A stretch of 64,000 nucleotides of DNA from a virus (lineage: Duplodnaviria; Heunggongvirae; Uroviricota; Caudoviricetes), in IMG/VR virus record IMGVR_UViG_3300036856_000037, one strand, 5' to 3'. This document shows, piece after piece, positions 9,899-38,090 of this stretch. The stretch's first letter is position 1; each line of letters starts with the position of its first letter. The translations under genes were made by a program, and so were the position numbers. The notes below the pieces were generated by a model, which did no database searches, had not been told where the DNA came from, and saw only the letters and a program-made list of their open reading frames with translations.

Positions 9899-9928
9899 GC
9901 CAGAAAACCCACCACGAAGGAGAAGGAC

Positions 9929-21302: not shown

Positions 21303-21371
21303 GATGACCTTAACAGGATGTGTGGACGCTTGTCCACCCCTTTTCCCCGGCGCGTCATATATGCTAGTCAC

Positions 21372-22046: not shown

Positions 22047-22723
22047 ACCTCTCCGTGCGCGCCACGTCCGAGGAGGAACTGGACCATCCAAGTACCAAGT
22101 TCCTCGACTACCGCAAGGTAATGGAGGAGCTGGCGGTGATCAATCGCGTCACGCTGACCCACCGCGCGGTGCTGGCGTGGCTGGCCAGTCAGGGACGGGA
22201 GAAGTTCTCCCTCATCGACGTCGGGTGTGGGGGCGGTGACCTCTTGCGCGCGATCCAGCGCCGCTACCCCCAGGCGCGCCTGGTCGGCATCGACAGCAAC
22301 CCGCGCGCCGCCACGGTGGCGCGGGAGCAACAGCTCATGCAGGAAACCGACACCCCCATCCACTACCGGACGGGGAACGTCTTCCACACCCCGCGGTCCA
22401 TCAAGGCGGACTACATCGTCAGCTCTCAGGTGGCCCACCACTTGGACGATGATGAGGTGGTCAAGCTCCTGCAGTGGATGGACGACCGGTCGTATATCGG
22501 CTGGCACCTGACTGACCTGCACCGGAATGCTTTCGCGCTCTATGCCTTTCAATTCATCGGCGGCGCTATTGGCCTGCATCACATCACCGTTGATGACGGC
22601 GTTATTTCCATCTCTCGCGGTTTCCGGCGTAGGGAATGGAAAGAATTCATCGAGCGCGCCCAGGTGGACGCGAACATTGTGTGGCATCCGTTATTCCGGT
22701 ACAGCATCAGCCGAATTAAGTAG
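22043..22723 (+). CDS. SAM-dependent methyltransferase
   Basis: motif I LIDVGCGGGDLL; ATGA-coupled to upstream gene. Confidence 0.65.
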   Translation: MNLSVRATSEEELDHPSTKFLDYRKVMEELAVINRVTLTHRAVLAWLASQGREKFSLIDVGCGGGDLLRAIQRRYPQARLVGIDSNPRAATVAREQQLMQETDTPIHYRTGNVFHTPRSIKADYIVSSQVAHHLDDDEVVKLLQWMDDRSYIGWHLTDLHRNAFALYAFQFIGGAIGLHHITVDDGVISISRGFRRREWKEFIERAQVDANIVWHPLFRYSISRIK

Positions 22724-22816: not shown

Positions 22817-23821
22817 ATGCCCGGTACGTTTGGCTTTGCGATATTTATTTTCATCGTCGCGGCCATCATCGTTCTCGTGGGAGTCGGAGGGATATTCGCC
22901 GGCAGTAAAGAGACGACCATCGGCGGCATCGGCATCGGTGTGGCGGTGGCATTACTCATCGGCCTGCCGCTGACACTGGTCGCCTCCTATGACCGCGTCG
23001 ACACGCGCAACGTCGGCATCCTGACAGACTTCGGCAGGCCGGATGGGGTCCAGGGCGCTGGGGTGTGGTGGCACGCGCCGTGGAAGCAGGTGCACGAACT
23101 GCCGGAGTCCATCCAGTTGCAGGCGTTCGAGTCCAACAGCTTCGACGACGCAAGCAAGGGTCAGGGTTCCAACAACAACCCGGCGGCCATCGGCGTTCGG
23201 CTGGCGAACAATTCGATGGCGTATGTCAACGCCAACCTGAACTGGCGCATCAAGGAGGGCGCGGCGCAGAAGCTATTCCAGGACTACGGCGGCGGCAACG
23301 TCTTCGGGACCATCAAGGAGCAGTTGGTCGACCGTCAGGAGCAGGTGGCGCTGTCCAAGGTGTTCGCCAAGTTCAACCCGCAGATTGTGGCGACGGCGAA
23401 TGCACCGGCGCCGGGTCAACCGGCACCACCGCCGCCTGGGCCTATCACGGCACCCGCGCAGGGCGCTAGCCTGCCCGACCTGGCCAGGGAAGTGAAGCAG
23501 GACCTGCAGGGTGCGGTGGGCGCGGAGATCGAAATCCTGGATGTCCGTATCCAGGGGATCTTCTACGACCAGCAGACCCAACAACGCATCGACATGTTCA
23601 ATCAGAAGGTGCAAGAAACCATGAATGCGGCGCAGGACGTCAAGACGGCTGAGCAACAGCGGGACGCGGCTATCCAGCGTGCCCAGCAGCCCAAGCCAGA
23701 CCTGACCATCGCGGTGTTCAACTGCATCCAGGAGGCGGTGGCGCAACACCAGCCGCAGAACGCCGCCGGGTGCTGGGGTCAGATTGGCGGGCAGCCGCTC
23801 ATCCAACTGCCCAAACCGTAG
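22817..23821 (+). CDS. SPFH/band-7 (HflK/C- or stomatin-like) membrane protein
   Basis: N-terminal TM helix, RVDTRNVGILTDFGRP band-7 start, long coiled-coil and Pro-rich C-terminus. Confidence 0.6.
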   Translation: MPGTFGFAIFIFIVAAIIVLVGVGGIFAGSKETTIGGIGIGVAVALLIGLPLTLVASYDRVDTRNVGILTDFGRPDGVQGAGVWWHAPWKQVHELPESIQLQAFESNSFDDASKGQGSNNNPAAIGVRLANNSMAYVNANLNWRIKEGAAQKLFQDYGGGNVFGTIKEQLVDRQEQVALSKVFAKFNPQIVATANAPAPGQPAPPPPGPITAPAQGASLPDLAREVKQDLQGAVGAEIEILDVRIQGIFYDQQTQQRIDMFNQKVQETMNAAQDVKTAEQQRDAAIQRAQQPKPDLTIAVFNCIQEAVAQHQPQNAAGCWGQIGGQPLIQLPKP

Positions 23822-23870
23822 TACTCCGCCAAATCCTCAGACGCGAGCGACTGCATTTTCGGCGGATTAG

Positions 23871-23906
23871 GCCAGGGCGCGGGTGGTTCACTGCCCGCGC
23901 CCTGGC
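23871..23906 (+). terminator. intrinsic-terminator-like hairpin (13-bp perfect stem GCCAGGGCGCGGG/CCCGCGCCCTGGC)
   Basis: perfect GC-rich inverted repeat, CTCTTTTT 10 nt downstream. Confidence 0.5.
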
Positions 23907-23930
23907 GCTTCTGCGCCTACTCTTTTTCCC

Positions 23931-24302
23931 ATGGAAGAGTGGAAACCCGTCCGTGGATTCGAGGAGTATTACATCGTCTCCAACATGGGCATCATCCGCT
24001 CTCTGGACCGCTTTGTCCGAGGTAAGGACGCCAGCGCGCGCAAGATCAAGGGACAGGAGCTGACGCCCCGGGTGCGCGCTGATGGCAGCTTCGCCGTCAA
24101 CCTGTGGCGCGACAACGTCTACCACCAGATTCCGGTGGCGCGCATTGTGCTCGAGGCTTTTGACCGGCCCCGGCCCCTGGGACACGACGCCAGGCCGACC
24201 AACCGCAACCCCGCCGATAACCGGTTGAGCAACTTGCGCTGGCGACTTGATGGACGACTTCGTAGAGCAGAGTCCATTAAGCGTCGGACAGGCCAGCTCT
24301 AA
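23931..24302 (+). CDS. HNH homing endonuclease with NUMOD4 motif
   Basis: MEEWKPVRGFEEYYIVSNMGIIRS is a NUMOD4 signature. Confidence 0.6.
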   Translation: MEEWKPVRGFEEYYIVSNMGIIRSLDRFVRGKDASARKIKGQELTPRVRADGSFAVNLWRDNVYHQIPVARIVLEAFDRPRPLGHDARPTNRNPADNRLSNLRWRLDGRLRRAESIKRRTGQL

Positions 24303-24311
24303 ATACCCACT

Positions 24312-24372
24312 ACTGATGTGCCAGGCGACTGGCGTATAATGGTCAGCGCGGCGGCAGTACGGCAGCCGCGTG
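24312..24372 (+). promoter_or_regulatory. promoter/operator/leader element copy 5 (CTGATGTGCCAGGCGACTGGCGTATAAT)
   Basis: -10 TATAAT 24335-24340. Confidence 0.5.
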
Positions 24373-24383
24373 GGGAGAACGAC

Positions 24384-24710
24384 ATGGAGATCAACTGGGT
24401 GTCCAAGCATCACCCTTTCCTGGTCCATTCCACGGACTGGGAGTGGTGGCTCATCAAGACCCGTCGCCTGCCGTTCGCGATGTGGGATGTCTACCGCAAG
24501 ACCCAGGTGCCCTACCCCGGCGGCCCGCCGATTGAACGGTATGCCGGTGGCTTCTGGTCCAAGCGTGCCGCCACGCAGTGGGCACAGCGACGTCATGATG
24601 AAGAACTTCAGTCGTGCGAGTGGAAGCGCATGACTGGCGAGGCCCCCGGCGCTGCACCTCTCCCCCCTGTGCGCGCCGGGGAGCCCTCACAACCCAGGGG
24701 TGCCGAATGA
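24384..24710 (+). CDS. hypothetical protein
   Basis: start at M23 of ORF 24318..24710 after GGGGAGAAC. Confidence 0.45.
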   Translation: MEINWVSKHHPFLVHSTDWEWWLIKTRRLPFAMWDVYRKTQVPYPGGPPIERYAGGFWSKRAATQWAQRRHDEELQSCEWKRMTGEAPGAAPLPPVRAGEPSQPRGAE

Positions 24711-25036
24711 AAATCGACCTGGTGACCGAGACCATCACTGTCGCTGGCATCAGACTGCCGTGGCGGCAACGCAAGACCTACCCGCCGAACCTGCATAAAG
24801 TGCTCAAGCATGGCGAGGTATTCATCCCTCTTGACCTGCTTCAAAAGGTGTGTGATCGCACCGCAGACGACTACCTCTACCACCCCATCCCCGCGTGGGA
24901 GGTGACCCACCAACAGGAGTGGGCACTAATCGAGGAGGGGTTGGCCGAGAAGGAAGCGCGCGGGTTTATCCACGGGACAGAGCGTGGCCGGCGAGTATTG
25001 GCCCAGCTGAAAGAACAGCAGGAAAAGACCGCCTGA
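24707..25036 (+). CDS. hypothetical protein
   Basis: ATGA-coupled. Confidence 0.45.
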   Translation: MKIDLVTETITVAGIRLPWRQRKTYPPNLHKVLKHGEVFIPLDLLQKVCDRTADDYLYHPIPAWEVTHQQEWALIEEGLAEKEARGFIHGTERGRRVLAQLKEQQEKTA

Positions 25037-25236
25037 TGAAGAAGATCCGTGTCGACCTGCGGGCATTCGCACCAGAAGAGATTGTGACCAGAGAAAAGGT
25101 GTATGCCCAACTCGACGAAGAGTCCGCCGAGCAACTTAAAGAGTATGACCGGCTTGTTGCGCTGGGACCAGGCGGGCGCACCGACGCGGAAACCACACGT
25201 CTGCAAGCGCTCGCGCTGCATATTGACATTGGATGA
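25036..25236 (+). CDS. small hypothetical protein
   Basis: TGATG-coupled. Confidence 0.4.
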   Translation: MKKIRVDLRAFAPEEIVTREKVYAQLDEESAEQLKEYDRLVALGPGGRTDAETTRLQALALHIDIG

Positions 25237-25451
25237 GAAAGGACTGCCTGATGGGGTATTGGAGCCAGGACGAGGACGGCAATTCCTTCGCCGGTGACGG
25301 CTCGATGGTTTGGGGTGATGCACCCGCCGACATCGTCGGTGACGCGCTGGCCGACATTGTCGCCGTCTTCACCGCCGACGTGGGGCGACCCCCCACCGAC
25401 GCGGAATTGCGCGCCGGGTGGGAGTTCAGCGTCAGAGCGCGCGAGGACTAG
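25233..25451 (+). CDS. small acidic hypothetical protein
   Basis: 72-aa ORF. Confidence 0.4.
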   Translation: MRKDCLMGYWSQDEDGNSFAGDGSMVWGDAPADIVGDALADIVAVFTADVGRPPTDAELRAGWEFSVRARED

Positions 25452-25455
25452 GGGC

Positions 25456-26289
25456 TTGACGACGTGTAGTAAATGCGCCACTCCTGGACAGGGTCGGCGC
25501 GGCCTGTGCAAAGCCTGCTGGGCACGTGACCGGAATAAAGTTAGCTGGACCTCCAGCTACGTGGACGCTGATCCGGTACGCATTCACCTCAAAGACCTGC
25601 AGGCCGCGGGCCTGGGACTGCGCCGCATCGCTGACCTGTCGGGGGTGAGCCGCAAGCAACTGCACTGGATTTTGTATGGCCGCAAAGAACGCGGGACACC
25701 GCCCAGTCGCCAAATCCTGGGGACCAATGCCGAGGCCATCCTGGCCGTCCCCGTCCCTGAACTCATCCACCAGGTGGCCAGCGACAGTGCCCTAGTCCCG
25801 GCGTACGGGACCACCCGGCGGCTCCAGGCGCTGGTGGCGCTGGGTTATACCCAGCACGACCTGGCCGCGCGCCTGGGCCTGCTGGACACCAACTTGGCCC
25901 GGCTGGTCTATGGGCCACCGGTGGTCAAGCGGGGACGCCGGAAGCGCATCACGGCGAAGATGGCACGCAAGGTCGAGGCGCTGTATGCAGAGTTATCCGA
26001 GACCCCTGGCCCCAGTCGGCGCAGTCTCAACCGGGCAAAGGCCCTCGGGTGGTTGCCGCCCATTGCGTGGGATGAGGACGTCATCGACCTGCCGCACCCG
26101 TGGCTGGACCGCAGGGCCGCGCGCGGTATCGGGGTGACGACGGAATCTAGTTTGCTGACGACGTATGATGACCTGCGCGCCGTGGGCTACACCCTGCGCG
26201 AGATCGGCGCCAAACTCGGACTGTCCGAGGAGGAGCTGGTCAAGGCGCTCAAGAAAAAGCGCCGCCTTACTCAGTTGGGTGAAATCTGA
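25456..26289 (+). CDS. DNA-binding protein with N-terminal zinc ribbon and three tandem HTH-like repeats
   Basis: TTG start after GAGGA; CSKCATPGQGRRGLCKAC; repeats AAGLGLRRIADLSGVSRKQL / ALGYTQHDLAARLGLLDTNL / AVGYTLREIGAKLGLSEEEL. Confidence 0.5.
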   Translation: MTTCSKCATPGQGRRGLCKACWARDRNKVSWTSSYVDADPVRIHLKDLQAAGLGLRRIADLSGVSRKQLHWILYGRKERGTPPSRQILGTNAEAILAVPVPELIHQVASDSALVPAYGTTRRLQALVALGYTQHDLAARLGLLDTNLARLVYGPPVVKRGRRKRITAKMARKVEALYAELSETPGPSRRSLNRAKALGWLPPIAWDEDVIDLPHPWLDRRAARGIGVTTESSLLTTYDDLRAVGYTLREIGAKLGLSEEELVKALKKKRRLTQLGEI

Positions 26290-26424
26290 ATTCTGTCGGC
26301 AGTGTCGTGGTGAGGTGGCCGGAATTTCGGCGCTCCCCGTGCGGATAGGCCAGGGTGTGACAGTCACAGCAGACGTCACTTCCTGGCATCCGCGTTCGTG
26401 TCAGGCAGATAGTGCACACGGTTC

Positions 26425-26901
26425 CTACTCTCCGCACCCGGCGTCGTCGAATTGTTGCCACGGGACAAACCCTCCATGGGGACACCAGAAGCCCCAGGCA
26501 CGTCCGCGCCGTCCGGTCATAATCACCGTCCAGCACGGCTTCTTGCCATAGGTCCCGTCCTTGCGGAAGCCGTTGACCAGCGCCACCCGGTGCCGGTACG
26601 TTCCGGCGCGGTAGGCCACCGACCATCGCCGGCGCGGGTGTGGGTTGCCTGGGACGGGTGTGTACTCCAGGTAATAACCCTTGATGATCCAGGAAATGAA
26701 CCACCACGGGTGATCGTGTAGCGCGGTATCGACGTCATCGCGCAAAAACTTGTGCAGATAAAGATTGCAGAATCCGTTGCGTGGAATGAGATACCAGCGG
26801 TGTAAATACGGGTCCTCCACCGTGCCGATAATTTGGTGCGGGTGGCCTGAAACCAGCCTTCTCAGCCAGCTGTCGTTCGTTGGTCGGGTCCGTGTGGTCA
26901 C
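26425..26901 (-). CDS. hypothetical protein
   Basis: 158-aa ORF. Confidence 0.45.
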   Translation of the reverse strand: MTTRTRPTNDSWLRRLVSGHPHQIIGTVEDPYLHRWYLIPRNGFCNLYLHKFLRDDVDTALHDHPWWFISWIIKGYYLEYTPVPGNPHPRRRWSVAYRAGTYRHRVALVNGFRKDGTYGKKPCWTVIMTGRRGRAWGFWCPHGGFVPWQQFDDAGCGE

Positions 26902-27230
26902 CAGTCCCCCTGGGGGCCGTCAGAAATCGGCCTGGTGTGGCCGTGGGCCGACGTTGGGGGGTCCGGTGGTGTGGCGGTGGCGGGGTCGTCTTCTTTGACC
27001 ACTGGCGCGACAGGTAGGCAGTCCATGTTCTCGTCTGCATTGCCCGGTATGAGTCCCGCGCGCCGGTAGGCCCGTAGGTACACCTGGGTCATCGGCTCTC
27101 GTTCATCCACCGCCAGGTGGCGGGTGTAGTGGTCAACTTCCTGGCAGATGCGTTCCTCGCGCGTCACCCCGGCGGTGCTGGCTCTCGGTGACAGCGCCAC
27201 CTTTCCCTCGCGGGTCCAGATGTCAGCCAT
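26898..27230 (-). CDS. hypothetical protein
   Basis: start at M29 of ORF 26898..27314. Confidence 0.35.
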   Translation of the reverse strand: MADIWTREGKVALSPRASTAGVTREERICQEVDHYTRHLAVDEREPMTQVYLRAYRRAGLIPGNADENMDCLPVAPVVKEDDPATATPPDPPTSAHGHTRPISDGPQGDW

Positions 27231-27543
27231 AGGTCTTGCCCGTCGCCAGGTAGGTCTCTCCCTCATGGAAAGCGTGTTCACGGCTGTTACGCCAGGCGCC
27301 GCACACCGCGCCATGGGGGCCGTCCCAGAAGAAGCGGTACTGCGTCGGACCCTCCTTGGTGAACCGGACTTCGATATCCAGTGCGTTGTTGTCCACCTTA
27401 GGCTGGCCGTACTTGTCGACCGGCCCCTCGAAGTCGTTGTCGGCTTCTCGCTCGAGTTTCATTTTTTCTCCTGGTACCAATGGCCGTACCTCGCCGCAAT
27501 CTCTGCACTGGATACCCGGGGCCAGCCATGTCGCATCAGCCAC
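27223..27543 (-). CDS. hypothetical protein
   Basis: 106-aa ORF. Confidence 0.45.
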   Translation of the reverse strand: MADATWLAPGIQCRDCGEVRPLVPGEKMKLEREADNDFEGPVDKYGQPKVDNNALDIEVRFTKEGPTQYRFFWDGPHGAVCGAWRNSREHAFHEGETYLATGKTYG

Positions 27544-27583
27544 TCCTTGTGACGCCGCCAGTTCACGCTGGGTAATTCATAGC

Positions 27584-28135
27584 TCATGCGGTCCTCCTCG
27601 GGCGGTGGTACTGCGGATATTCCCTGTTCAACATCTGGTATGCCGCATCGACGGTTAACGTCTCGGGTCGGCTGGCCTCCATCCACGGCGGCAGGTCGGC
27701 CTCCATCGTCACCGGCAGGCCACCGAACGGACTGGTGCCGACCATTATTGGAAGCCCGGGCTGTAGCGGCGGGCGCGCAACGAGTGGCGGGCCGAACGTG
27801 ACGACGGTCTGGTAGATGAACGGATCGCTCCAGGTGTCCTGTTGTTCCACCGGGGCCTCTGGTACCACTGGCTCAGGTTCTGACGGCAGCAGGTGGGCCG
27901 ACCACGCCAGCGCGGCGGCGACGTGAAATTCCTCGGGCACCGGGTAGTCGCCGTAGAAGCCGCGTGGATCACCGGCCAGGAAGAGCTCATTCTGGAAAAA
28001 CGCGCGGTACCCCAGCTCGGCTTTCTGCCGCAACGCCTTCTCCTGACGGGCATGTGCGCGGCTGAAAAGGATCGTCACGGTGCACATCAACCAGGCGATC
28101 ACCAAACAGGAGCCCAGAACGGTGCAGAGCATCAT
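27584..28135 (-). CDS. membrane protein
   Basis: N-terminal TM helix LCTVLGSCLVIAWLMCTVTILF. Confidence 0.5.
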   Translation of the reverse strand: MMLCTVLGSCLVIAWLMCTVTILFSRAHARQEKALRQKAELGYRAFFQNELFLAGDPRGFYGDYPVPEEFHVAAALAWSAHLLPSEPEPVVPEAPVEQQDTWSDPFIYQTVVTFGPPLVARPPLQPGLPIMVGTSPFGGLPVTMEADLPPWMEASRPETLTVDAAYQMLNREYPQYHRPRRTA

Positions 28136-28614
28136 GATTGCTCCACGCCGTCCAGTGCCGTCAGGATGCGCGCGCGGTAAGCCTCTTCGCTCTCATCCTT
28201 GCGCCGCTCATAGTCGCTGTGGCGATGCTGGACCGGCACCGCGCGCTCAGGCACTTCCTGCGCGTCCCACTTCTTGGCCTGGCCGCCGATCACTTCCTGG
28301 ATCCTGGCCAGGTGCTCTTGCCGGCGCTCATCGCTGACCGGAACCTTGTCCAGCTCCAGTGGCGCTCGGTCAGCCTGGTCGCGTCGTTTGGCGCGGGCGA
28401 CGTTGGAGATGTCCGCGGGCTGCGGCCAGGGCCGCTGGGGCACTGAGTAGTAATCAGCGACGGCGCTCAGCAAATCCTGGCGTTGCAGGGTGGGGTAGCG
28501 CTCAAAGTGCTCATACCAGGCGTCCTCGATGATGAGTGACTGCTTCGGCGAGTGGATGGGGTCGTACCCGACACACTTGGTCAGGGCATCGAGGATGTCA
28601 CTGCGGGTGATCAT
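28132..28614 (-). CDS. hypothetical protein
   Basis: 160-aa ORF, ATGA-coupled. Confidence 0.5.
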   Translation of the reverse strand: MITRSDILDALTKCVGYDPIHSPKQSLIIEDAWYEHFERYPTLQRQDLLSAVADYYSVPQRPWPQPADISNVARAKRRDQADRAPLELDKVPVSDERRQEHLARIQEVIGGQAKKWDAQEVPERAVPVQHRHSDYERRKDESEEAYRARILTALDGVEQS

Positions 28615-29531
28615 TCCAGCTCCCCTTGTACCGGCTGTGAACGCATGGCTTCCTCCCTCTCGAGTTGTTGTTTTCTCATCTGCAGGCCCATTGCCTTCTG
28701 GTCGACGCCGTTGAGTTGGCCATTGGCCCGGTGGAACTGCGGGAACTTATTCGGGTTCCCCGCGACGTCCCGACACCGGCGCTGAAAAGTCATATCCCAG
28801 TCCAGCTTCGCGGCATGTTGTCCCGTCTCTGACCCCCAGAACTCTTGGAAGTCCTCAAGCAAAACGCCTAGACGGAGGTTGGGGTATTTCTCGATCATGG
28901 TGGCCCGTACGTGGTCGGAAGGCCGCCAGCCGTCAGGGATGCGCTTGCCGCGCTTGGCGCCCCCCCCAGACCCCCCCTTACCAGTGGAAGTTACTTCCTT
29001 AGGTAAGTCCATTAAGGTAACTACCTCACTACCTGGCCTAGCCTGCCTAGCCTGCCTGTGCTGTCCCGAGTCGCTTCCCCGGGGAATGTCCCCCGGGACA
29101 TCCGCTGTAGCAGGGGTTTCCCTAAAGGCGTCCCCTGGCCTGTCCCCCGGGACACTCCCTGGGGGGATGTCCCGGGGGACAAACCCGTCGTCGGCAGCCC
29201 TTGCCGCGCGCTGGCGCGCCTTCTTCTCCCGCTCGCGCGTTCTGGCGCGCTCTAGGATTTCATGCTCTGCGCGGGTGGTCTGGGTCGACGAGAACTCCGA
29301 AATAAGCCACCGTCGCTCAATCTGGGTCCACAAGCCAGCGGCGACAAGCTCGTCCTCTGTGCACCGGGTAAAGCCGGGAATGAGACCTAGGTCCTCTGGC
29401 TCAATAACGCCGTCCGTGCGATTCTCCACCGACCACATAAGGGAGCTGACGAATGACCGATGCGCTCTATCGGTAAGCCGTTGTACGCGCCGGTCAGTCA
29501 GCCACCGACCTGGGAGCCTCGTGTCACTCAT
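28611..29531 (-). CDS. hypothetical protein with internal peptide/DNA repeats (possible replication-associated)
   Basis: 306 aa; central low-complexity region encoded by iteron-like DNA palindromes. Confidence 0.45.
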   Translation of the reverse strand: MSDTRLPGRWLTDRRVQRLTDRAHRSFVSSLMWSVENRTDGVIEPEDLGLIPGFTRCTEDELVAAGLWTQIERRWLISEFSSTQTTRAEHEILERARTREREKKARQRAARAADDGFVPRDIPPGSVPGDRPGDAFRETPATADVPGDIPRGSDSGQHRQARQARPGSEVVTLMDLPKEVTSTGKGGSGGGAKRGKRIPDGWRPSDHVRATMIEKYPNLRLGVLLEDFQEFWGSETGQHAAKLDWDMTFQRRCRDVAGNPNKFPQFHRANGQLNGVDQKAMGLQMRKQQLEREEAMRSQPVQGELE

Positions 29532-29802
29532 CTAGTGTCCAACAAGCCGCCACGGTTCAACCTTCATGTCGACACCGCCCACACACCATGCAGACTCCTC
29601 TTGGCGAAGTCCCCCCGGATGACCCCCGGCAGTAGGTGGGCAATACATTTGCCAGCCACCTGGCATATACATACCACCTTCGCAGGGGAGAACGTAGTGT
29701 TTTGCCGGTGTCAATTGTGTTTAGTAGCAAGGGTTCAGCAAACTACATTGATGTCATTACTCTTGCTACTTGTTAGTAACTTGGGGACAACTTGTTAGCC
29801 CA

Positions 29803-29851
29803 GGGACCGGGTCGTGCTGGATGGAACGCTGGACGGACACGACCCGGTCAC
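29803..29851 (-). terminator. 12-bp inverted repeat GACCGGGTCGTG/CACGACCCGGTC downstream of the RecT-like gene
   Basis: perfect inverted repeat with 20-nt loop; no U-tract. Confidence 0.3.
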
Positions 29852-29858
29852 CCCGATG

Positions 29859-30812
29859 CTATTCCGGCGGGGTCTGCAGGGAGTCCAACACAGCCTGTGC
29901 GTCCTCCTTGGAGATTTTGTGCAGGCTGGTCAGCTTCGCGTCGCGTTGCAGGAATTGGCCAATCTCATCGAGCACCGCCTGGCCGGTGATGTTGCGCGCC
30001 TTGTACAGCTTGCGGATCTGCTCGAGCTGTTCATTGGACGGCGGTGCCCCCTCGGGCTGTACCGGGGCGGGCTCTGGCTCGGGCTGGGGCGCTGGTGCCG
30101 GAGGGGGGGATTCCTCCGCTGACTGCGAGGCAATCTCCCGCAACGCCGACATGCCGCCTCCGCGTGGCGCCTGGCGCACCACCCGCTGGACGGTGACGTT
30201 GTCCAGTTGCAACTCCTCCACGCTGTAGGCCATGCCCAGCAGCACATCCTGGTATTGGATGCGGCAGACCTCAGCAATGCACTTGGCTCGCAACATTTCC
30301 TGCGGGTTGGTCTGGTACCGCGCATTGCTGGTGTAGCCCGCCTGGCTGGCGCGCTCCATCGTCCACTCGCTGGTGGCCCACTTGCCGTCGCGTTCAGCGC
30401 GCCACACGACCCGTTGGTCGGTGGCCTCCACCTCCTCGATCTTGTAGCCCGCCCGCCGTACCTGGGCCGCCATCGTGCGGGCATACACCGCCGGCTTGCC
30501 CGCGACGACGAAGATGTTCTGCGCACTCTGCGCGGCAGTCAGCCCTAACTCCGAGCCATAGAGGATGGCGGCGGCCAAGTCCCAGGTCGCGGAGTCCCCG
30601 CGCGGGTCGGTGCACCCGCGGGGCTTGGCATTGCGCTGGAAGTGCTCAGGCACCATGGAGGTGGCTGACAGCGCCTTGGCAATCTTGAACGCCTTGTCCA
30701 TGGACTCAGCCTCAGCCTCTAGGCGCTGCAGGCTCCCGGTGGTGGGTGTGGTGATCTCACGAACATCAGGTTCGTAGTGGGCCACGTCGTTACCCGGTTG
30801 TTCGATACTCAT
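29859..30812 (-). CDS. RecT/Redbeta-like single-strand annealing protein (putative)
   Basis: position immediately downstream of YqaJ-like exonuclease gene; size and composition consistent; Pro-rich linker. Confidence 0.45.
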   Translation of the reverse strand: MSIEQPGNDVAHYEPDVREITTPTTGSLQRLEAEAESMDKAFKIAKALSATSMVPEHFQRNAKPRGCTDPRGDSATWDLAAAILYGSELGLTAAQSAQNIFVVAGKPAVYARTMAAQVRRAGYKIEEVEATDQRVVWRAERDGKWATSEWTMERASQAGYTSNARYQTNPQEMLRAKCIAEVCRIQYQDVLLGMAYSVEELQLDNVTVQRVVRQAPRGGGMSALREIASQSAEESPPPAPAPQPEPEPAPVQPEGAPPSNEQLEQIRKLYKARNITGQAVLDEIGQFLQRDAKLTSLHKISKEDAQAVLDSLQTPPE

Positions 30813-31073
30813 GTTGTATCCTCTCTCTATTCCCATTTCTTGTTCCGGCCCCCGGTTTCCCCGCCGGGGGTTTTTCTTTACCTCACCCCTGTCCGTTGGC
30901 GCGGTGGGATCATCGCGTCAGCCAGCAGGTAGTTGTATATCTCCTCATACCCCCAGCCGAGGGCACGCAGTTGGGCACGTCGCACGTAGTACTGGGGCAC
31001 CTCCATGTCGATGTCGAGGACGCCACTGGACGCCAGTGCCTCAAGAATCTCGCGCTGGTCGTTCGTCTGTGGG

Positions 31074-31949
31074 TTAAAGAACAACGAGGCTCACCCCTCC
31101 ACGTGACCCTTTCTGGCGCCGCGCCACATACTCATCGTTGACCTGCGCCGTCTGGGCATTTCCCATCAAGTCCAGTAGTTCGGTCTTCAGGCCCCGCAGC
31201 TTGGACTCCAGCGGCGTGATCTCACCCTTGATGTCCTGTATTTGCACGATCAGGTCCTCGGGCACGTTGACCACGCTGCCGTCGATATCAGGATGAAGCT
31301 CTTTGACCGTCCGGTAGGTGCTGACGCTGTCGTCCAAGTCGGGCGGCACCTCTCCACTGAGGGAGCGGTAGAACCCGACGCACTTGGACAGCATCCAATT
31401 GGCCACGTTGATGTCGAAGTCGACGGGGTAGATGTGCTCCTTGAAGAACGGACCCAGCACCATCAGGTGCGCCGTGGACCGCAGGCCGCTGATGAGTTGT
31501 TGCGCGATCACCTGCAGGGTGTAGTCAGCAGGCCCCTCCCCGTCCAGGTTAGGGTCACCCCATTCCTCGAGTGAGCGCGCCAGCTTCATTTCCACGATGT
31601 GCTTACTGCGGCCCCGGCTGGCGCGCCTGTCGATGGTGGCCAGCGCGGGGAAGCCAAACTCATCCGTGATGTACTGCGCCTCTCCCTTGGACAGTCGCCA
31701 GCCGGGGTGCCGCGCCTTCCACAGTTCCGCCATGGCCAGTTCCATCGCCAACCCGGTGTCGAAGATGTCCATGTGCGGCTTTGGATCAATGGTCCCCTTC
31801 ATCCGGTGCCAGATCGTGTAGGCGCTTTCCCACCGTGACACTCCGCAGATTGAGGCAATCTTGGAGGGGGAGATATAGCGCGCGTGCTCAGGGCTCCCCG
31901 GCTCGATGAAGCCGCAGTCACCGTGCTGCAGGCATATGGCCTCGCTCAT
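31074..31949 (-). CDS. YqaJ/lambda-exonuclease-like (RecE-like) nuclease
   Basis: N-terminal ISPSKIASICGVSRWES-type YqaJ start; PD-(D/E)xK-like core. Confidence 0.55.
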   Translation of the reverse strand: MSEAICLQHGDCGFIEPGSPEHARYISPSKIASICGVSRWESAYTIWHRMKGTIDPKPHMDIFDTGLAMELAMAELWKARHPGWRLSKGEAQYITDEFGFPALATIDRRASRGRSKHIVEMKLARSLEEWGDPNLDGEGPADYTLQVIAQQLISGLRSTAHLMVLGPFFKEHIYPVDFDINVANWMLSKCVGFYRSLSGEVPPDLDDSVSTYRTVKELHPDIDGSVVNVPEDLIVQIQDIKGEITPLESKLRGLKTELLDLMGNAQTAQVNDEYVARRQKGSRGGVSLVVL

Positions 31950-32515
31950 ATCCCGTCCATAAGGTCGCGGTAGTTGAACTTGGTCCCGATGGCGTCAATG
32001 ATGGAGACGTTTTCCGTGGCATCTAGCCCCAGTACCCGACTGTCGTAAATCCGTGCGTACTTGGGTACATAGGTCCGGTTGATGACAAACCGCTCACCCA
32101 GCCACGTCAAGCGCCACCAGCCAGCCCGACCACCGTCCTCGCGCTGGGCTTCCGGCAACTCTTCAATAAGATTCCACCAGGACAACTGGCTGAATTCATG
32201 CGTCTCATTCCTCACTAACGACGCACTATGGGCGTACTCTCGGCCCACCTCCCGATATTGCCTAATCAATCCCCGCGCCATTGGTGAGGTGATTTTGCGC
32301 CGGTACACCTTGGTCATCTGGCCACACAGCGGACACCGGCATCCGTCGTCGCATCTATCACGTAGCCACCCCTGCGCCAGGCCCAGGGGAGTAGCGGGTG
32401 GTAGTGGCGAGAAATGGGTGAAGGGGCTTCCATTACTCGTCATTGTCGCCGTGCTCTTCTTGGATCTGCGCCTCATTGATCTGCTCGAAAGTGACGCCGC
32501 GGAAGGCATCAGCAA
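31946..32515 (-). CDS. hypothetical protein with CxxC...CPLC zinc motif
   Basis: 189-aa ORF. Confidence 0.45.
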   Translation of the reverse strand: MLMPSAASLSSRSMRRRSKKSTATMTSNGSPFTHFSPLPPATPLGLAQGWLRDRCDDGCRCPLCGQMTKVYRRKITSPMARGLIRQYREVGREYAHSASLVRNETHEFSQLSWWNLIEELPEAQREDGGRAGWWRLTWLGERFVINRTYVPKYARIYDSRVLGLDATENVSIIDAIGTKFNYRDLMDGI

Positions 32516-32807
32516 TCTCGTCCTCGAGGTCCATATCTAAGACCGTCTGCCCTGTCCGCTGCTCCATCGCGCGGCGCAACAGTCGCTCAGCCTGGGCATA
32601 GTCCTGCTTGAGGATGGCCTCAATGGAACGGATACGGACCGTGGGGATGCTGTCGCCGGTGTCGTTGTCCACCACCGTCTTCTGGTTGTCCACCAGCACC
32701 AGGAGCGCGTGCACCTTGTGGGGGTCTTTGACCAGTGCGCCGGCAATCTTGGCGAGGCCGTTCTTGTCGCCTCCTGGGAGTTTTCCACTGAGCTTGATGT
32801 CCGACAT
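32433..32807 (-). CDS. hypothetical acidic protein
   Basis: 124-aa ORF. Confidence 0.4.
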   Translation of the reverse strand: MSDIKLSGKLPGGDKNGLAKIAGALVKDPHKVHALLVLVDNQKTVVDNDTGDSIPTVRIRSIEAILKQDYAQAERLLRRAMEQRTGQTVLDMDLEDEIADAFRGVTFEQINEAQIQEEHGDNDE

Positions 32808-32913
32808 ATGCCACCCTCCTGGTTGGTAACCGCCCGTTCTGCGGGTTTGCCGTTACCGTACTACCGGGGGGCGACATCTTTAGTAGGCGCGCCGTAATGC
32901 CAGCGTGATGGCC

Positions 32914-33522
<609 letters not shown>

Positions 33523-33665
33523 CTACAGGAATCACCCTATTCAACACGAGTCAATAGGGCGTCATTGCTGGACACTCGGCGTGTCGGCTGGCAATTTCGG
33601 CACAAACATGCGCAAAGAAGCGGTGGCATGTTTACTATTAGCGCCATGTGGGGGATTAGCAAAGA

Positions 33666-33908
33666 GTGACGCTCCAGGTAGTCGGCGGCGATCTGTTACG
33701 TCAGCTCATCGCGGCGCGTTACGCCAGCAACCTCACCCAGGCAACTGTCGCAGAGAAAATGGGCGTATCAGCGGCGCGGGTGGGACATATTGAATCGGGC
33801 TACCGGACCATGACGATGGGGACGCTCCTGCGCTATGCCGAGGCCGTGGGGGTGGACTTGGTGGCCGTCCAAAAAAGTCCCCCGATGTGCCAGTTGGGTG
33901 GCGTATAA
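33666..33908 (+). CDS. XRE-family HTH regulator (Cro/CI-like)
   Basis: LTQATVAEKMGVSAARVGHIESG. Confidence 0.55.
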   Translation: MTLQVVGGDLLRQLIAARYASNLTQATVAEKMGVSAARVGHIESGYRTMTMGTLLRYAEAVGVDLVAVQKSPPMCQLGGV

Positions 33909-33912
33909 TTGG
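33880..33912 (+). promoter_or_regulatory. promoter/operator element copy 6 (CCGATGTGCCAGTTGGGTGGCGTATAAT)
   Basis: -10 TATAAT 33904-33909, ATG 6 nt downstream. Confidence 0.5.
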
Positions 33913-33915
33913 CGC

Positions 33916-34458
33916 ATGACCGCCAGTACAGACCTCGACAATAAACTCACACGGGTTAACAAGCTGATTCTTACTCCCGGCGCGCACGCCGTGCTCAAGC
34001 GCGAAGGTGTTGACACCCTGGGTCACTTGACCAAATTCACCGATCAACAGCTCCTCCGTATGACCGGCATGACGCCGGAAAACGTCGCGCAAATCAGCAC
34101 TGAGCTGGCGCGGCGCGGGTTGCGGTTAGGCGCGGAAGGCCAGGCCCAGGCGCAGGCCGACTCATATGAGCGCAGCCTGGAACTACAGCACGACGTCAGG
34201 GAAGAGAGCTACCGGGTCTTCACCTACGACGAGTTCACCCTGACCGTCCATGAAGACGGCTCAGCAGTCCTCGAGAGAGCACCCCAGAGGGTCTCGTTGG
34301 GCGCTGACCAAATGGCCGCGCTGGGGGAGATACACCGGCGATTGGACGAGAGTCAGCTCATCAAGCTTCTCCACCACTGGGAACAGGGTGAGGACATCGA
34401 CAAGCTGTATGCCCAGGCGGTGCGGCGGGCACTGGCGGGAGAACTGAAGTGGCAATGA
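33916..34458 (+). CDS. hypothetical protein with RNAP-alpha-CTD-like helix-hairpin-helix N-domain; probably leaderless
   Basis: ATG 6 nt after TATAAT; LTPGAHAVLKREGVDTLGHLTKFTDQQLLRMTGM. Confidence 0.45.
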   Translation: MTASTDLDNKLTRVNKLILTPGAHAVLKREGVDTLGHLTKFTDQQLLRMTGMTPENVAQISTELARRGLRLGAEGQAQAQADSYERSLELQHDVREESYRVFTYDEFTLTVHEDGSAVLERAPQRVSLGADQMAALGEIHRRLDESQLIKLLHHWEQGEDIDKLYAQAVRRALAGELKWQ

Positions 34459-34808
34459 GGCTGTCTCGTCCCTGCTATGACAAGCCTCACCGGTGTCCTG
34501 GTTGGGCCGGTGGTGGATGGCGCAGTGCTGCTCAGTACACCTGCGTCAATGGCTCTATCCGCACCAGGGTCAGGGATGACCTGATAGGAGACTTCGGCTA
34601 TCCCGGTGACCAACGGTGGCGCTTCGGCCACTGCAACCACTGCAATGTGGTGACCTGGCCCGTCGCCCTGTGTCACACGCTTGACCCGTCGTGGTGGAAG
34701 TTCGCGTTGGAACGCTTCAGCCGGCGAGTCGCTGATAGCTGGGACGATTATCACTTTCACGGCGAAAGCATGGGGCTCATTTACGCTACCCGGTGGCGGC
34801 GGTACTGA
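34449..34808 (+). CDS. Cys/Trp-rich hypothetical protein
   Basis: 119-aa ORF. Confidence 0.4.
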   Translation: MAMRLSRPCYDKPHRCPGWAGGGWRSAAQYTCVNGSIRTRVRDDLIGDFGYPGDQRWRFGHCNHCNVVTWPVALCHTLDPSWWKFALERFSRRVADSWDDYHFHGESMGLIYATRWRRY

Positions 34809-34887
34809 TGACCGGCTGGACCACATTCATCACAGTGACACTTGCAGGGCTCATCGCCTATGGCCTGTATGCCGCGATGAACTACCC

Positions 34888-35196
34888 ATGGCTGACATGA
34901 CGGACATCGTAGCCCTGATGGCCGACGTACTGGCCACGCATGAGTGCACCTATGGCGAAGACGGCGGCTTTTGCTGCACGGCGGCTGAGTGCGACTGGAC
35001 TGGCCAGGGTGGCGACTTCTACACCCACGTCGCGCAGGTGCTCACAGCAGAGCTGAAACTTACCGATGAGTGGTCGGATGACATCGCGGGACCAGACTGG
35101 GGGCGGCATCACCGGTGGGTCACCCCCAGGACGTTTTACCCCGGCCCGGGGCGATTGGCATCAGACAAAAGACTGGAGGAGAAGTATGGGGTTTAA
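34888..35196 (+). CDS. hypothetical acidic Cys-containing protein
   Basis: start at M70 of ORF 34681..35196. Confidence 0.35.
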   Translation: MADMTDIVALMADVLATHECTYGEDGGFCCTAAECDWTGQGGDFYTHVAQVLTAELKLTDEWSDDIAGPDWGRHHRWVTPRTFYPGPGRLASDKRLEEKYGV

Positions 35197-35482
35197 CACC
35201 AACATCACCATCTGCAACGACAACCTGGCCGACTATGAGCGTCAGCCCGAGCGGTTCATGAGTGTCGTGACTGAAGGACTGCAAAGTGGCGCCAAGTCCT
35301 GGGGCATCACCGTCCAGCCCACCGACCACGCCGATGCCACCCAACTCATCGCCGTGGGCCACAACTCCTCCACCAAGGTGTTTACCGCCAATTACCTCGC
35401 GTCCCACCATCTGGAGGCCGGGCAGGTGGAATTACTGCGCCGCTGGGCCGACGCGCTGGGCTACCGAATCAGCAAGAAGTGA
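35186..35482 (+). CDS. hypothetical protein
   Basis: start at M41 of ORF 35066..35482 after GGAGGAG. Confidence 0.45.
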   Translation: MGFNTNITICNDNLADYERQPERFMSVVTEGLQSGAKSWGITVQPTDHADATQLIAVGHNSSTKVFTANYLASHHLEAGQVELLRRWADALGYRISKK

Positions 35483-35721
35483 GGCGCCCGGGGGAGGCCA
35501 AAGACCCCTGGTGCTGTCTGTCCGACAAGATGCAGGCGTCACTGCAGGGCTTTGACCGAGGCGCGCTGACCGTCTACCGCTCTATGCACCATGTCGTCGC
35601 GCGGCTGACGCGGGAAGAAGCCCTGGAAATCATCGACGACCAACTGGCCAAGCTGGAAGAGAAATTCGAGACGGTGTACGGCGAACCACAGAGGCGACAT
35701 GGACCACGAAGCGCTGATTGA
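35479..35721 (+). CDS. hypothetical protein
   Basis: GTGA-coupled. Confidence 0.4.
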   Translation: MRRPGEAKDPWCCLSDKMQASLQGFDRGALTVYRSMHHVVARLTREEALEIIDDQLAKLEEKFETVYGEPQRRHGPRSAD

Positions 35722-35837
35722 CCTGACTGCCCGGTTGACGGCGTTTGCGCGCGACTGCGTGGAGCATGGTGACATGACACCCTCAGGACAACGTGCCTTG
35801 CTGTCCATCCTGGAGAAATACGGCGCTCGATAGTCTG

Positions 35838-35866
35838 TTGATGTGCCAGGCCGGTGGCGTATATTG
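35838..35866 (+). promoter_or_regulatory. promoter/operator element copy 7 (TTGATGTGCCAGGCCGGTGGCGTATATT)
   Basis: spacer identical to copy 1. Confidence 0.5.
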
Positions 35867-35885
35867 GTCACAGGAAGCGGGGGCA

Positions 35886-36095
35886 ATGGACATCAACGGC
35901 ACGACGTACAGCTGGACTCAACCCTCATGCGACACCTGTTACGCAGACCTATATCCCGGCAGGGAGCCGTTGCGGATGAAGGAGGAGTACCGCGAGTCCG
36001 AGCAGTGCTGCATGTGCGGTAAGGCCACCGCCAGTGGCATCTACTGCCGTGTCAACCCCAGCGAAGTACCCCACCCGACACCCGAGGTGAACTGA
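35886..36095 (+). CDS. small Cys-rich zinc-binding protein
   Basis: CDTC...CCMCGK...C. Confidence 0.45.
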   Translation: MDINGTTYSWTQPSCDTCYADLYPGREPLRMKEEYRESEQCCMCGKATASGIYCRVNPSEVPHPTPEVN

Positions 36096-36278
36096 GTGAC
36101 CTTCCCTGATGTCCGGTGGTCGTCTGCCCACCACTATGACCACGCGATGGCCCTGTTGCAGCAGGCGGACCAGGCTAGTACCCAGACGCCGGGCGACGAC
36201 CAGGCGGGCAACCCCCAGCGCCTTGAGGCCATAGTGCACATGCTGGGCGGGCTGTTGCGAAGCCAACTCGGTTTCTAA
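36096..36278 (+). CDS. small hypothetical protein
   Basis: 60-aa ORF. Confidence 0.3.
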   Translation: MTFPDVRWSSAHHYDHAMALLQQADQASTQTPGDDQAGNPQRLEAIVHMLGGLLRSQLGF

Positions 36279-36280
36279 CC

Positions 36281-36511
36281 ATGGACCTCAATGACCTCAT
36301 CGGGTGCTGCGGCACCCTCACGCTCGCCACTCGCGGGCCAGCGGGGTTTGGTGAGATTACGGTGAAAGCACACGGATGCCGGATGGCCTACCTGGCGTGG
36401 TCAGCCGAGCCGATTGCCCGAGGGGAGCAGGTCGTCGTCATTGGCATACGCGGCATAGGCACCGTGATGGTGGAGCCGTGGGACTTTGGGGCAAGGGCCC
36501 CAGAGGGGTAA
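36281..36511 (+). CDS. NfeD-like OB-fold protein (short form)
   Basis: 76 aa, beta-rich GEITVKAHG...GEQVVVIGIRGIGTVMVEP; immediately upstream of flotillin gene. Confidence 0.5.
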   Translation: MDLNDLIGCCGTLTLATRGPAGFGEITVKAHGCRMAYLAWSAEPIARGEQVVVIGIRGIGTVMVEPWDFGARAPEG

Positions 36512-36525
36512 CGAAGGAGAAGTTC

Positions 36526-37857
36526 ATGTTTGGTTATCGCGTACCACGCCCTGATGAGGCGATGCTCATCTCCGGCGCCAAGTCCAAGGCGAAGGAGGAC
36601 TTGTCGGCGGGACCACCCTTCCAGGTGGTCGTCGGACACGGCAAGTGGGTCCTCCCACTCTTCCGCAAGGTGGAGTTTCTGACCCTGCAGATGCATGAGG
36701 CGGAAGTCATCGAGAACTGCGTCAGCCGCCAGGGGATACCGCTCAAGGTCAATGCGGTCATCGCGTTCAAGGTGGCCAACGACACCGAGAGCATCTGTGC
36801 TGCCGCGCAACGCTTCCTGGTCCAGGAGGACCAGATGCAGACGCTGACGGGTCGCATCTTTGCCGGCCACCTGCGAAGCATCGTGGGCTCCATGACGGTG
36901 GAGGAGATTGTCCAGGATCGCCAGAAGCTGGCGACGGAGGTGGTGGACGGCAGCAAGGAGGAGATGGCGCGCATCGGCCTGACGGTGGATGCGTTGCAGA
37001 TCCAATCCATCGAGGACCCCACGGGGTACATCCAAGCGATGGCCAAGCCCAACATCGCCGCCGTCCAACAGCGCGCCAATGTTGCCCAGGCACAAGCCGA
37101 CCAGGCCAGTGCTGAGGCCCAGCAGCAGTCGTTGCGCAAGCAGGCGGAGTTCGCGCGCGAAACCGCCGTCCAGCAATCCCAGTATCAGGCGGAGATGGAC
37201 AAGGCCCAGCAGGTGGCAGCCCAGGCGGGTCCGTTGGCCGCCGCGGAGTCTGAGCAGGCGGTGTTGGAGAAGCAACGCCAGACCGCAGAACGTCGCGCCG
37301 AGCTGACCAAGGCCAACCTGTTGTCCAGTGTGGTGGAGCCACAGAAGGCGGAAGCCGAGAAGGTACAGATCATCGCCAGTGCCGAGGCTGAGAGGGCCAA
37401 GATCGAGGCGCGCGCCGCCGCCGACATCGCGACCATCAATGCCAACGCGGCCAAGATGGCGGCCCAGGCCAACGCGGATGCCACCCGCGCGGCCAAGCAG
37501 GCTGAGGCAGACGGCATCAGGGCGGTCAAGACGGCTGAAGCCGAGGGCCTGAAAGCGGCGGCAGAGGCGGCAGCCGCTGAGGGCAAGGTGTCGCTGGACC
37601 AATTGCTCATCCAGACACTGCCCGAGGCCATTCGCGCGGCCTCTCAGGGCTTGGCAGGGTCGAAGATCACCATGCTGGGTGGTGGCGATGAATACACCAA
37701 GCTGGTTGCCGGGTTGGTCCAGCAAGGCGCAGGCATCTTCCAATCCCTGCGCGGTGCGCTCAATGACTCCACCAACGGCAGGCAGACTGATGACCTGAGT
37801 GAGAAAATGTGGCAACTACGCACGGAAGCAGACCCTATTGGCGATTCGAGACGGTGA
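36526..37857 (+). CDS. flotillin-like SPFH-domain protein
   Basis: MFGYRVPRPDEAMLISG start, SPFH core, very long Ala/Gln/Glu-rich coiled-coil (EA repeats). Confidence 0.7.
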   Translation: MFGYRVPRPDEAMLISGAKSKAKEDLSAGPPFQVVVGHGKWVLPLFRKVEFLTLQMHEAEVIENCVSRQGIPLKVNAVIAFKVANDTESICAAAQRFLVQEDQMQTLTGRIFAGHLRSIVGSMTVEEIVQDRQKLATEVVDGSKEEMARIGLTVDALQIQSIEDPTGYIQAMAKPNIAAVQQRANVAQAQADQASAEAQQQSLRKQAEFARETAVQQSQYQAEMDKAQQVAAQAGPLAAAESEQAVLEKQRQTAERRAELTKANLLSSVVEPQKAEAEKVQIIASAEAERAKIEARAAADIATINANAAKMAAQANADATRAAKQAEADGIRAVKTAEAEGLKAAAEAAAAEGKVSLDQLLIQTLPEAIRAASQGLAGSKITMLGGGDEYTKLVAGLVQQGAGIFQSLRGALNDSTNGRQTDDLSEKMWQLRTEADPIGDSRR

Positions 37858-38090
37858 GCTAAGCGCCGAGGAAACCTCCCGAGGGTGGCGATTCACCTAC
37901 GTCACCTACGGGGGGGCAACCCACCTGGGTCCTCGTCTGTATAAGACCAAGGCGGGGGCACAGTCCGCCGGGCACAAGTGGCTGGAGCAGGAAAAGAAGA
38001 AGAGGTGAGCCAACGTCGGGCGTCAAGCCCGCCGCGCCGTTGTTTGTTCATGCACTGGGGTGTAGGGCGGCGTGGAAGTATGGACGGACC

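Follow-up and report, generated by a model that had tools for sequence, protein, structure and literature searches.

A host-derived flotillin operon and an unrelated band-7-like membrane protein gene in an uncultured actinophage-type genome

In the FloA–NfeD pair of Staphylococcus aureus and the FloT–YuaF (NfeD1b) pair of Bacillus subtilis, an nfeD-like gene lies immediately 5′ of a gene for a protein that combines an SPFH (band-7) domain with an Ala/Glu-rich (EA-rich) coiled coil. FloA and FloT are anchored by an N-terminal transmembrane (TM) helix or hairpin, and the NfeD proteins paired with them are likewise membrane proteins. Through its OB-like domain, NfeD binds the coiled coil of FloA and stabilizes the FloA oligomers, and FloA–NfeD has ATP-independent holdase activity (PMC11222466). 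The eukaryotic flotillin-1/2 cage (9bq2, 9l3g) is built of proteins without a TM helix, which are acylated, form hetero-oligomers and have no NfeD partner (PMC11222466). A further anchorless SPFH protein, YdjI (SamI) encoded by the pspA-ydjGHI operon of B. subtilis, is recruited to the membrane by partner proteins (PMC8581546), and the structure of the QmcA–YbbJ cage has also been solved (8z5g; PMC13086221). The architecture of SPFH cages is well known, but what they do in bacteria is still poorly defined. A virus that has captured and retained a complete flotillin/partner operon represents a natural gain-of-function experiment. Here we describe such an operon in a 64,000-nucleotide stretch of viral DNA (IMG/VR record IMGVR_UViG_3300036856_000037, referred to as the window), in which a flotillin gene is preceded by a gene for a small NfeD-like protein (together called the cassette), while a band-7-like gene (gene A) is found separately. 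The three open reading frames (ORFs) reported in the initial annotation (22817–23821, 36281–36511 and 36526–37857, all on the + strand) are all present in this phage DNA.

The 443-aa product of 36526–37857 proved in profile and pairwise searches to be a genuine flotillin. It matched Pfam Band_7 (PF01145) with 65.8 bits, well above the gathering cut-off of 23.6, and phmmer aligned its residues 27–388 with human flotillin-1 and -2 (cages 9bq2, 9l3g) at E~1e-25, in agreement with its earlier description as a flotillin with an EA-rich coiled coil. The NCBIfam FloT equivalog model (NF058507) was matched at profile positions 21–446 of 477 with 173.8 bits, far under its cut-off of 700, and considering this together with the alignment to the human proteins, we concluded that the protein belongs to the flotillins without being an orthologue of FloT. 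No TM segment was predicted in it (the maximum of the 19-residue Kyte–Doolittle hydropathy, KD19, was 0.98). The ATG at 36526 is preceded at a distance of 6 nt by a Shine–Dalgarno sequence, GAAGGAG (36513–36519, +), and a longer in-frame ORF beginning at 36376 overlaps the partner gene and brings no hydrophobic segment. The start corresponds to column 21 of the FloT profile, just past the FloT anchor, and the same start was found in 12/12 aligned actinobacterial homologues, which share the N-terminus M[LF]GY[RK]VPxPDEAMLISG. Pairwise and multiple alignments revealed two parts of the phage protein that are missing from the host homologues, a longer C-tail and an extra 51-aa Ala/Glu-rich coiled-coil segment at residues 300–350 (37423–37575, +). 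The latter was examined as a possible internal duplication, which was rejected as its score of 59 did not exceed the maximum of 60 obtained with shuffled sequences.

The gene at 36281–36511 (+) encodes a 76-aa protein and ends 14 nt before the flotillin ORF. The two genes had been taken for a canonical operon of a short NfeD and a flotillin, of which the NfeD-like partner and the close pairing were retained, while the canonical form was not: neither protein has a TM segment (the KD19 maximum of the partner was 1.23) and the best Pfam match of the partner, NfeD (PF01957), reached 20.4 bits, below the gathering cut-off of 29.1. Since a homologue search with the 76-aa protein gave 2 matches, the partner family was collected instead from 80 genome loci of related flotillins. 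When compared with Pfam NfeD, 22 of the 37 family members tested gave E<0.01, the best of them E=2.2e-5, and the family profile searched against the PDB found YuaF (2k14, E=0.003) first and the short NfeD of Pyrococcus horikoshii (2exd, E=0.018) second, with 3wwv also listed. In an exhaustive phmmer search, 102 cluster representatives of 62–155 aa were obtained, nearly all of them 62–125 aa long, and the N-termini of the longer ones were non-hydrophobic and apparently over-called. This family-level evidence, consistent but weak, points to an NfeD-like partner consisting of the OB domain only, which would fall outside the canonical short NfeD class (TM + OB).

The nearest relatives of the flotillin are chromosomal proteins of approximately 377 aa with 51–56% identity, encoded in Mycobacterium (marinum, ulcerans, kansasii, scrofulaceum and others) and in other Actinomycetota; nothing closer than 56% was found in a collection of 5.8 billion proteins. 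A Mycobacterium marinum-like chromosome (AP026367, locus L001, 4738–6134) contains a flotillin gene and a preceding 76-aa ORF whose products are 54% and 47% identical, respectively, to the phage pair. When one genome per species was scanned, at least 598 flotillin loci belonging to the subfamily were detected, and in 75 of the best 80 actinobacterial loci a homologue of the small protein was encoded immediately 5′ of the flotillin gene. The anchorless flotillin/OB-only subfamily is thus widespread in Actinomycetota, and its chromosomal pairs (a flotillin and a 70–80-aa partner) resemble the phage pair in gene order, spacing and the lack of TM segments, while the 51-aa EA-rich helix segment, the longer C-tail and a long branch distinguish the phage flotillin. 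On the basis of the conserved pairing and the identity to the chromosomal pair, the cassette is a conserved actinobacterial operon that was captured by the phage, from a Mycobacteriales-like chromosome. The operon is a normal module of actinobacteria; it is the carrier that is unusual. In Mycobacterium the host cassette was located directly upstream of greA-like, gtrA, dprE1 and mostly dprE2 genes (the arabinan precursor locus) in L001 and in 14 of 16 loci among L010–L073, a linkage that was not seen in Rhodococcus, Nocardia, Streptomyces and the other genera checked. The surroundings of the phage copy are small genes of early type. If the cassette is of benefit to the phage, this would point to a role of the anchorless flotillin/OB-only subfamily in mycobacteria.

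The cassette is well integrated into its surroundings. Only a 2-nt gap separates it from the upstream gene, all these genes are co-directional, and the cassette lies inside a long operon of small, non-structural, early-type genes, around which a promoter/terminator scan found nothing above shuffled sequences. Its GC content (0.637–0.645) and GC content at third codon positions (GC3, 0.75–0.80) are close to the phage averages (0.619 and 0.78) rather than to the values of the host gene (0.657 and 0.86), which points to an amelioration of its base composition towards that of the phage after the capture. In a neighbour-joining tree the branch of the phage flotillin was 0.24 long versus a median of 0.028, and its mean distance was 0.386 from the Mycobacterium and 0.419 from the Streptomyces proteins, while these two groups were 0.269 apart. 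Both ORFs are intact and the phage flotillin has kept the residues that are invariant in the host alignment. The phage-like composition, the tight gaps, the lack of bracketing signals and the long branch together suggest an old acquisition or fast evolution and argue against misassembly. The neighbour-joining sister of the phage flotillin (P0010, loci L005/L006) was considered as a possible second phage copy, which was rejected because no NfeD-like ORF is found upstream and the flanks look like a chromosomal regulator fragment. Just downstream of the flotillin gene, 38835–39401 (+) encodes a DUF732 protein (Pfam DUF732, E=9e-7).

Comparison with the systems mentioned above showed which features are shared. 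Similar to FloA–NfeD and FloT–YuaF, the phage cassette contains an nfeD-like gene immediately 5′, an SPFH domain followed by an EA-rich coiled coil and an OB-like domain with YuaF as the best match of its family profile, but it is anchorless on both counts, in the flotillin as well as in the partner. With the eukaryotic flotillins it shares an alignment that extends from the SPFH domain almost to the C-terminal end and the absence of a TM helix, and differs in having an NfeD-like partner. YdjI is likewise an SPFH protein without a membrane anchor; however, its system includes the membrane-protein partners YdjG/H and a link to PspA, while neither a PspA-like nor a membrane partner adjoins the phage cassette.

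Flotillins are very rare in phages. Among 50,697 phage records, tblastn with the flotillin detected 7, six of which are unannotated: two are faecal “Bacteriophage sp.” scaffolds of 11 and 32 kb, one of them marked UNVERIFIED, and four are Enterococcus/Listeria “phage” records of 1.5–20.5 kb. The sole annotated phage genome with a flotillin among the 50,697 records is that of Vibrio phage KIT04, whose gp048 (“flotillin family protein”) is 20% identical to the flotillin of the window phage. As in the window, a small ORF lies directly upstream of the KIT04 gene, but the flotillin of KIT04 carries a TM helix at its N-terminus, and the 82-aa product of the upstream ORF is hydrophobic and shows no relationship to the OB family (hhalign probability 0.05), for which reason it was rejected as an OB-only partner. 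The KIT04 gene is an independent acquisition by a T5-like phage of a Gram-negative host. In IMG/VR, a scan with the single flotillin as query gave no match, while a motif scan based on the alignment of the subfamily detected one contig (L004, IMGVR_UViG_3300010396_000038; 128 kb, GC 70%), which encodes at 9758–13892 a 69-aa partner, a 425-aa flotillin (41% identity) and, immediately 3′ of it, an 842-aa protein resembling bacterial major vault protein (MVP_shoulder, E=1.9e-19, and Vault_3). The latter gene was tried as a conserved neighbour of the cassette and rejected, since it was not found in the other 80 loci. Relatives of the window phage were sampled within ±10 kb of either RecT or gene A. 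In these relatives (RecT 61% and gene A 78% identity in L098/L099, gene A 76% in L095, RecT 65% in L087), no flotillin gene was found within this distance in L087, L092, L095 or L098/L099, and gene A itself was not found within ±10 kb of RecT in L087 and L092. It thus seems that the cassette was acquired specifically in this lineage.

The other SPFH protein of the window proved to be quite ordinary for a phage. Gene A (22817–23821, +; 334 aa) matched Pfam Band_7 with 47.9 bits (E=2e-12), again above the cut-off, so the presence of two SPFH proteins was confirmed by profile search. Their description as paralogues was not: gene A and the flotillin show no BLASTP similarity, and they have separate origins, one in an old phage family and the other in the host-derived cassette. 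The span 22817–37857 consists of two separate loci with approximately 12.5 kb of unrelated replication and recombination genes between them. Gene A matched phrog_200 over residues 9–289 (E=1.3e-33), and tblastn found relatives in 283 phage records with about 32% identity over >80% of the length, 257 of them from phages of Mycobacterium and the rest from phages of Gordonia, Rhodococcus and Streptomyces, mostly annotated as “band-7-like membrane protein”. Gene A is thus a member of a known, common, but uncharacterized actinophage family. The cultured examples of phrog_200 (PegLeg gp120, McProf gp16, Send513 gp78 and LeBron gp49) occupy the same non-structural, DNA-metabolism region of their genomes, in PegLeg and McProf beside a MazG-like gene, but are just ~32% identical to gene A, while the closer relatives (47–79% identity) are all on uncultured ~100-kb contigs or in Mycobacterium genome assemblies. 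Overexpression of LeBron gp49, a Band-7-like protein with a TM domain, was mildly cytotoxic (PMC13148394). Gene A is flanked by two methyltransferase genes and a gene for a NUMOD4/HNH protein, with neither an NfeD-like nor a protease gene adjacent to it. The two adjacent methyltransferase-like genes (S-adenosylmethionine-dependent type) occupy 21318–22723 (+), immediately 5′ of gene A. HNH/NUMOD4-type homing-endonuclease-like genes were found at 23883–24302, 25294–26289 and 38040–38552, one of them directly 3′ of gene A and one shortly 3′ of the flotillin gene.

The anatomy of the gene A protein had been given as one TM helix, a sequence motif, a coiled coil and a Pro-rich tail. The membrane segment and the motif RVDTRNVGILTDFGRP (residues 60–75) were found as described, but hydropathy (KD19 ≥1.6 over residues 1–32 and 32–59, with a maximum of 3.1) and an AlphaFold2 (AF2) model predicted two hydrophobic helices forming a hairpin, and the Pro-rich part is an internal loop and not a tail. 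The model, based on a 36-sequence alignment (pLDDT 85.5), places TM helices at residues 3–27 and 31–57 (hairpin, residues 3–57, 22823–22987, +), which are followed by the SPFH domain (residues 58–250) and a long helix (residues 252–290; together 22988–23686, +), as delimited by the Pfam match at residues 61–281, the AF2 secondary structure and the per-block pLDDT, and then by small C-terminal helices. The Pro/Ala-rich stretch at residues ~195–218 is a variable, low-confidence loop inside the SPFH domain that is missing from some homologues. Gene A showed no sequence-level match to any solved SPFH protein; nevertheless, Foldseek aligned its model with the full-length cage chains of erlin1/2, HflK/C, prohibitin and stomatin (E 1e-12 to 1e-9). 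In the C-terminal region, the cysteines C303 and C319 (23723–23773, +) are invariant in 36/36 homologues, and the other non-membrane cysteines occur only in pairs (79/84, in three sequences), suggesting that C303 and C319 form a disulfide. The loop between the TM helices has a net charge of +1.06 averaged across the 36 homologues, while the N-terminus of 3–4 residues is uncharged. The positive loop and the paired cysteines suggest an N-out/loop-in/C-out topology, in which the SPFH domain would be extracytoplasmic and disulfide-bonded, with the orientation of HflK/C. For a family that is found in hundreds of mycobacteriophages and has no assigned function, outward topology and a probable disulfide make a concrete hypothesis.

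The window is clearly phage DNA of actinophage type, in spite of its nearly absent DNA similarity to deposited phages. It encodes minor tail proteins, a RecT/YqaJ recombination pair, a replication initiator and queuosine genes, and it gave many PHROG matches; its GC content is ~62% throughout and no tRNA genes were found in it. When the SPFH region and 40–64 kb were compared at the DNA level with the 50,697 phage records, only tiny matches were obtained, indicating that no cultured phage is closely related. One of the minor tail proteins, of 485 aa, shares ~45% identity with tail proteins of phages such as Gaia and Nebkiss, which infect Mycobacterium, and of M. abscessus prophages. The window also contains a PE–PPE gene pair at 9929–11455 (+) (PE, 99 aa, Pfam PE E=2.8e-17; PPE, 407 aa, E=2.5e-59), preceded just upstream by a WhiB gene (9599–9898), and a second PPE gene (50206–51270, −; 353 aa) with a PPE-SVP C-terminus. 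The PE/PPE, WhiB and DUF732 families are characteristic of mycobacteria, and the PE/PPE genes point to Mycobacterium as host. Since tblastn with PPE gave zero matches in the phage records, bona fide phage PE/PPE genes appear unprecedented among these 50,697, and they may be a greater surprise than the SPFH genes. Flotillin, partner and gene A proteins with exactly these sequences are all recorded on one and the same metagenome contig from JGI, which is 116,665 bp long. Considering these results, we favour, with somewhat better than even confidence in the explanation as a whole, that the window is part of an uncultured siphovirus-like phage of ~117 kb, which infects Mycobacterium and carries two unrelated SPFH systems.

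With an ordinary band-7 protein and a host-derived flotillin module, this phage probably builds membrane-scaffold cages in its host. By its fold, gene A would form an outward-facing ring or cage of the HflK/C, prohibitin or erlin type with a Cys-paired C-terminal knob. The anchorless flotillin may bind the cytoplasmic face of the membrane via its SPFH domain and oligomerize through the long EA-rich helices into a dome like that of the eukaryotic flotillins, whose wall helix would be longer than in the host protein owing to the additional 51 residues. The OB-like partner of 76 aa could bind the coiled-coil region and stabilize the oligomer, as the NfeD OB-like domain does with S. aureus FloA. 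This model of a dome with an OB partner draws on the solved SPFH assemblies (9bq2, 7vhq, 8z5g) and on the FloA–NfeD biochemistry (PMC11222466). The pair might reach the membrane either by lipid binding of the SPFH domain, as eukaryotic flotillins do, or by recruitment through a membrane partner in the manner of YdjI. Presumably expressed together with the early-type genes that surround it, the cassette would add to the flotillin of the infected host or take its place, and could hold envelope and membrane protein complexes together, keeping the membrane functional until lysis. An auxiliary, host-type function that maintains or re-organizes membrane/envelope complexes during infection is most likely, and it is the best-supported general reading. 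For the roles in ESX secretion and cell-wall synthesis put forward in the initial annotation, the PE/PPE genes of the phage and the dprE1/dprE2 neighbours of the host cassette are circumstantial leads.

Several points weigh against this interpretation. The portion read is 64 kb of the ~117-kb genome. The best Pfam match of the partner lies under the gathering cut-off, as mentioned above, and its AF2 model, built from a 2-sequence alignment, had five strands with a pLDDT of 48.5 and found no fold match in Foldseek. The cassette is dispensable for this phage type, because the sampled relatives do not contain it within ±10 kb. The long branch of the flotillin implies that its function may have diverged from that of the host proteins. 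Finally, neither cassette protein has a membrane anchor of its own.

The alternative that survives best is that the cassette is a moron serving superinfection exclusion or lysogenic conversion, where one or both SPFH systems would block DNA injection by other phages or raise the stress or antibiotic tolerance of the lysogen, an effect known from host flotillins. Being host-derived and dispensable in relatives, the cassette is indeed moron-like, prophages such as McProf carry band-7-like genes, and a 77-aa ORF 1.5 kb downstream (39398–39631, +) has a weak match to Ren-like exclusion proteins (phrog_142, E=3e-4). Mutants of the flotillin and NfeD of S. aureus are stress-sensitive (PMC11222466). 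However, the PADLOC defence models matched none of the three proteins (gene A, partner and flotillin), and the cassette is embedded in a long co-directional operon without the bracketing promoter- or terminator-like signals that are typical of morons. Neither an integrase nor a repressor gene was seen within the 64 kb, and the band-7-like family also occurs in the 155-kb myoviruses of Cluster C type, which are lytic. On balance, we consider this explanation unlikely.

A scaffold for type VII secretion was also weighed, according to which the flotillin module organizes or boosts the ESX system of the host for the export of the phage PE/PPE proteins or other cargo. The PE–PPE pair and the second PPE, both belonging to ESX substrate families, are encoded in the same window; FloA of S. 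aureus scaffolds the assembly of the type VII secretion system through EssB–EssA (PMC5718613), and ESX-secreted toxin cassettes are known in Mycobacterium prophages (PMC10654092). Nevertheless, 25 kb lie between the cassette and the PE/PPE pair and 12 kb between it and the single PPE gene, thus there is no operon link, the core of the mycobacterial ESX is unlike the EssA/EssB machinery of firmicutes, and with a single such phage found there is no co-occurrence statistic, all of which makes this role quite improbable.

Modulation of proteolysis or protein quality control would assign gene A to enclosing and regulating the host FtsH or another membrane protease in the manner of HflK/C, while the flotillin/OB pair would hold clients at the inner face. 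The gene A model matched chains of HflK/C–FtsH complexes (7vhq, 9cz2, 7wi3) over ~285–300 columns at E 1e-11 to 1e-9, its predicted extracytoplasmic orientation is the same as that of HflK/C, and the JGI annotation names it an HflC-like regulator of protease activity. The cage fold of HflK/HflC (TM, SPFH1/2 and long wall helix) is matched by gene A, but erlin, prohibitin and stomatin match it equally well, so the fold is not specific to HflK/C; in addition, gene A is single, while HflK and HflC are paired subunits, it has no match to solved SPFH proteins at the sequence level, and no protease gene is adjacent. We therefore regard a protease-directed function as doubtful, with a low probability.

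A bolder version of the cage model can also be drawn, in which two SPFH cages on the opposite faces of the plasma membrane, the outward band-7 protein and the inward flotillin/OB pair with its lengthened wall, build a phage-specific membrane domain that possibly scaffolds the ESX export of phage PE/PPE or captures envelope-synthesis enzymes, a possibility suggested by the dprE1/dprE2 linkage of the host cassette. If true, it would mean that a virus remodels the membrane microdomains of bacteria, but we rate it as a speculative and improbable elaboration; the practical impact of these genes is modest as long as no connection with ESX secretion, envelope synthesis or phage exclusion is shown. 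The weakest explanation, that the cassette is host DNA misassembled into a phage contig or a decaying, functionless passenger, could appeal to the metagenomic source, the uniqueness of the cassette among the sampled relatives and the long flotillin branch, but it is very unlikely indeed, since the cassette is surrounded by phage genes in the middle of the window, with gaps of 2 and 14 nt, has the GC and GC3 values of the phage and not of the host, shares no more than 54% and 47% identity with any host copy, and consists of two intact ORFs with the host-invariant residues kept.

Besides the SPFH genes, a few other genes of the window are worth mentioning. A cluster of queuosine/7-deazaguanine-type genes (40991–46871, −), which probably serve DNA modification, includes a queuine tRNA-ribosyltransferase-like gene at 44840–45895 (phrog_7068, E=7e-115) and, at ~43836–43943, a QueE-like DNA match to phage CRB2, while a weak QueC-like match (phrog_1550, E=2e-15) was located apart from the cluster at 7023–7808 (−). 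A 590-aa protein encoded at 18636–20408 (−) matched phrog_850, “RNA-binding protein”, with E=1e-84. The 2000-aa minor tail protein encoded at 56066–62068 (−) is composed of several minor-tail PHROG domains and contains a lysin/endolysin-like segment at residues ~334–870.

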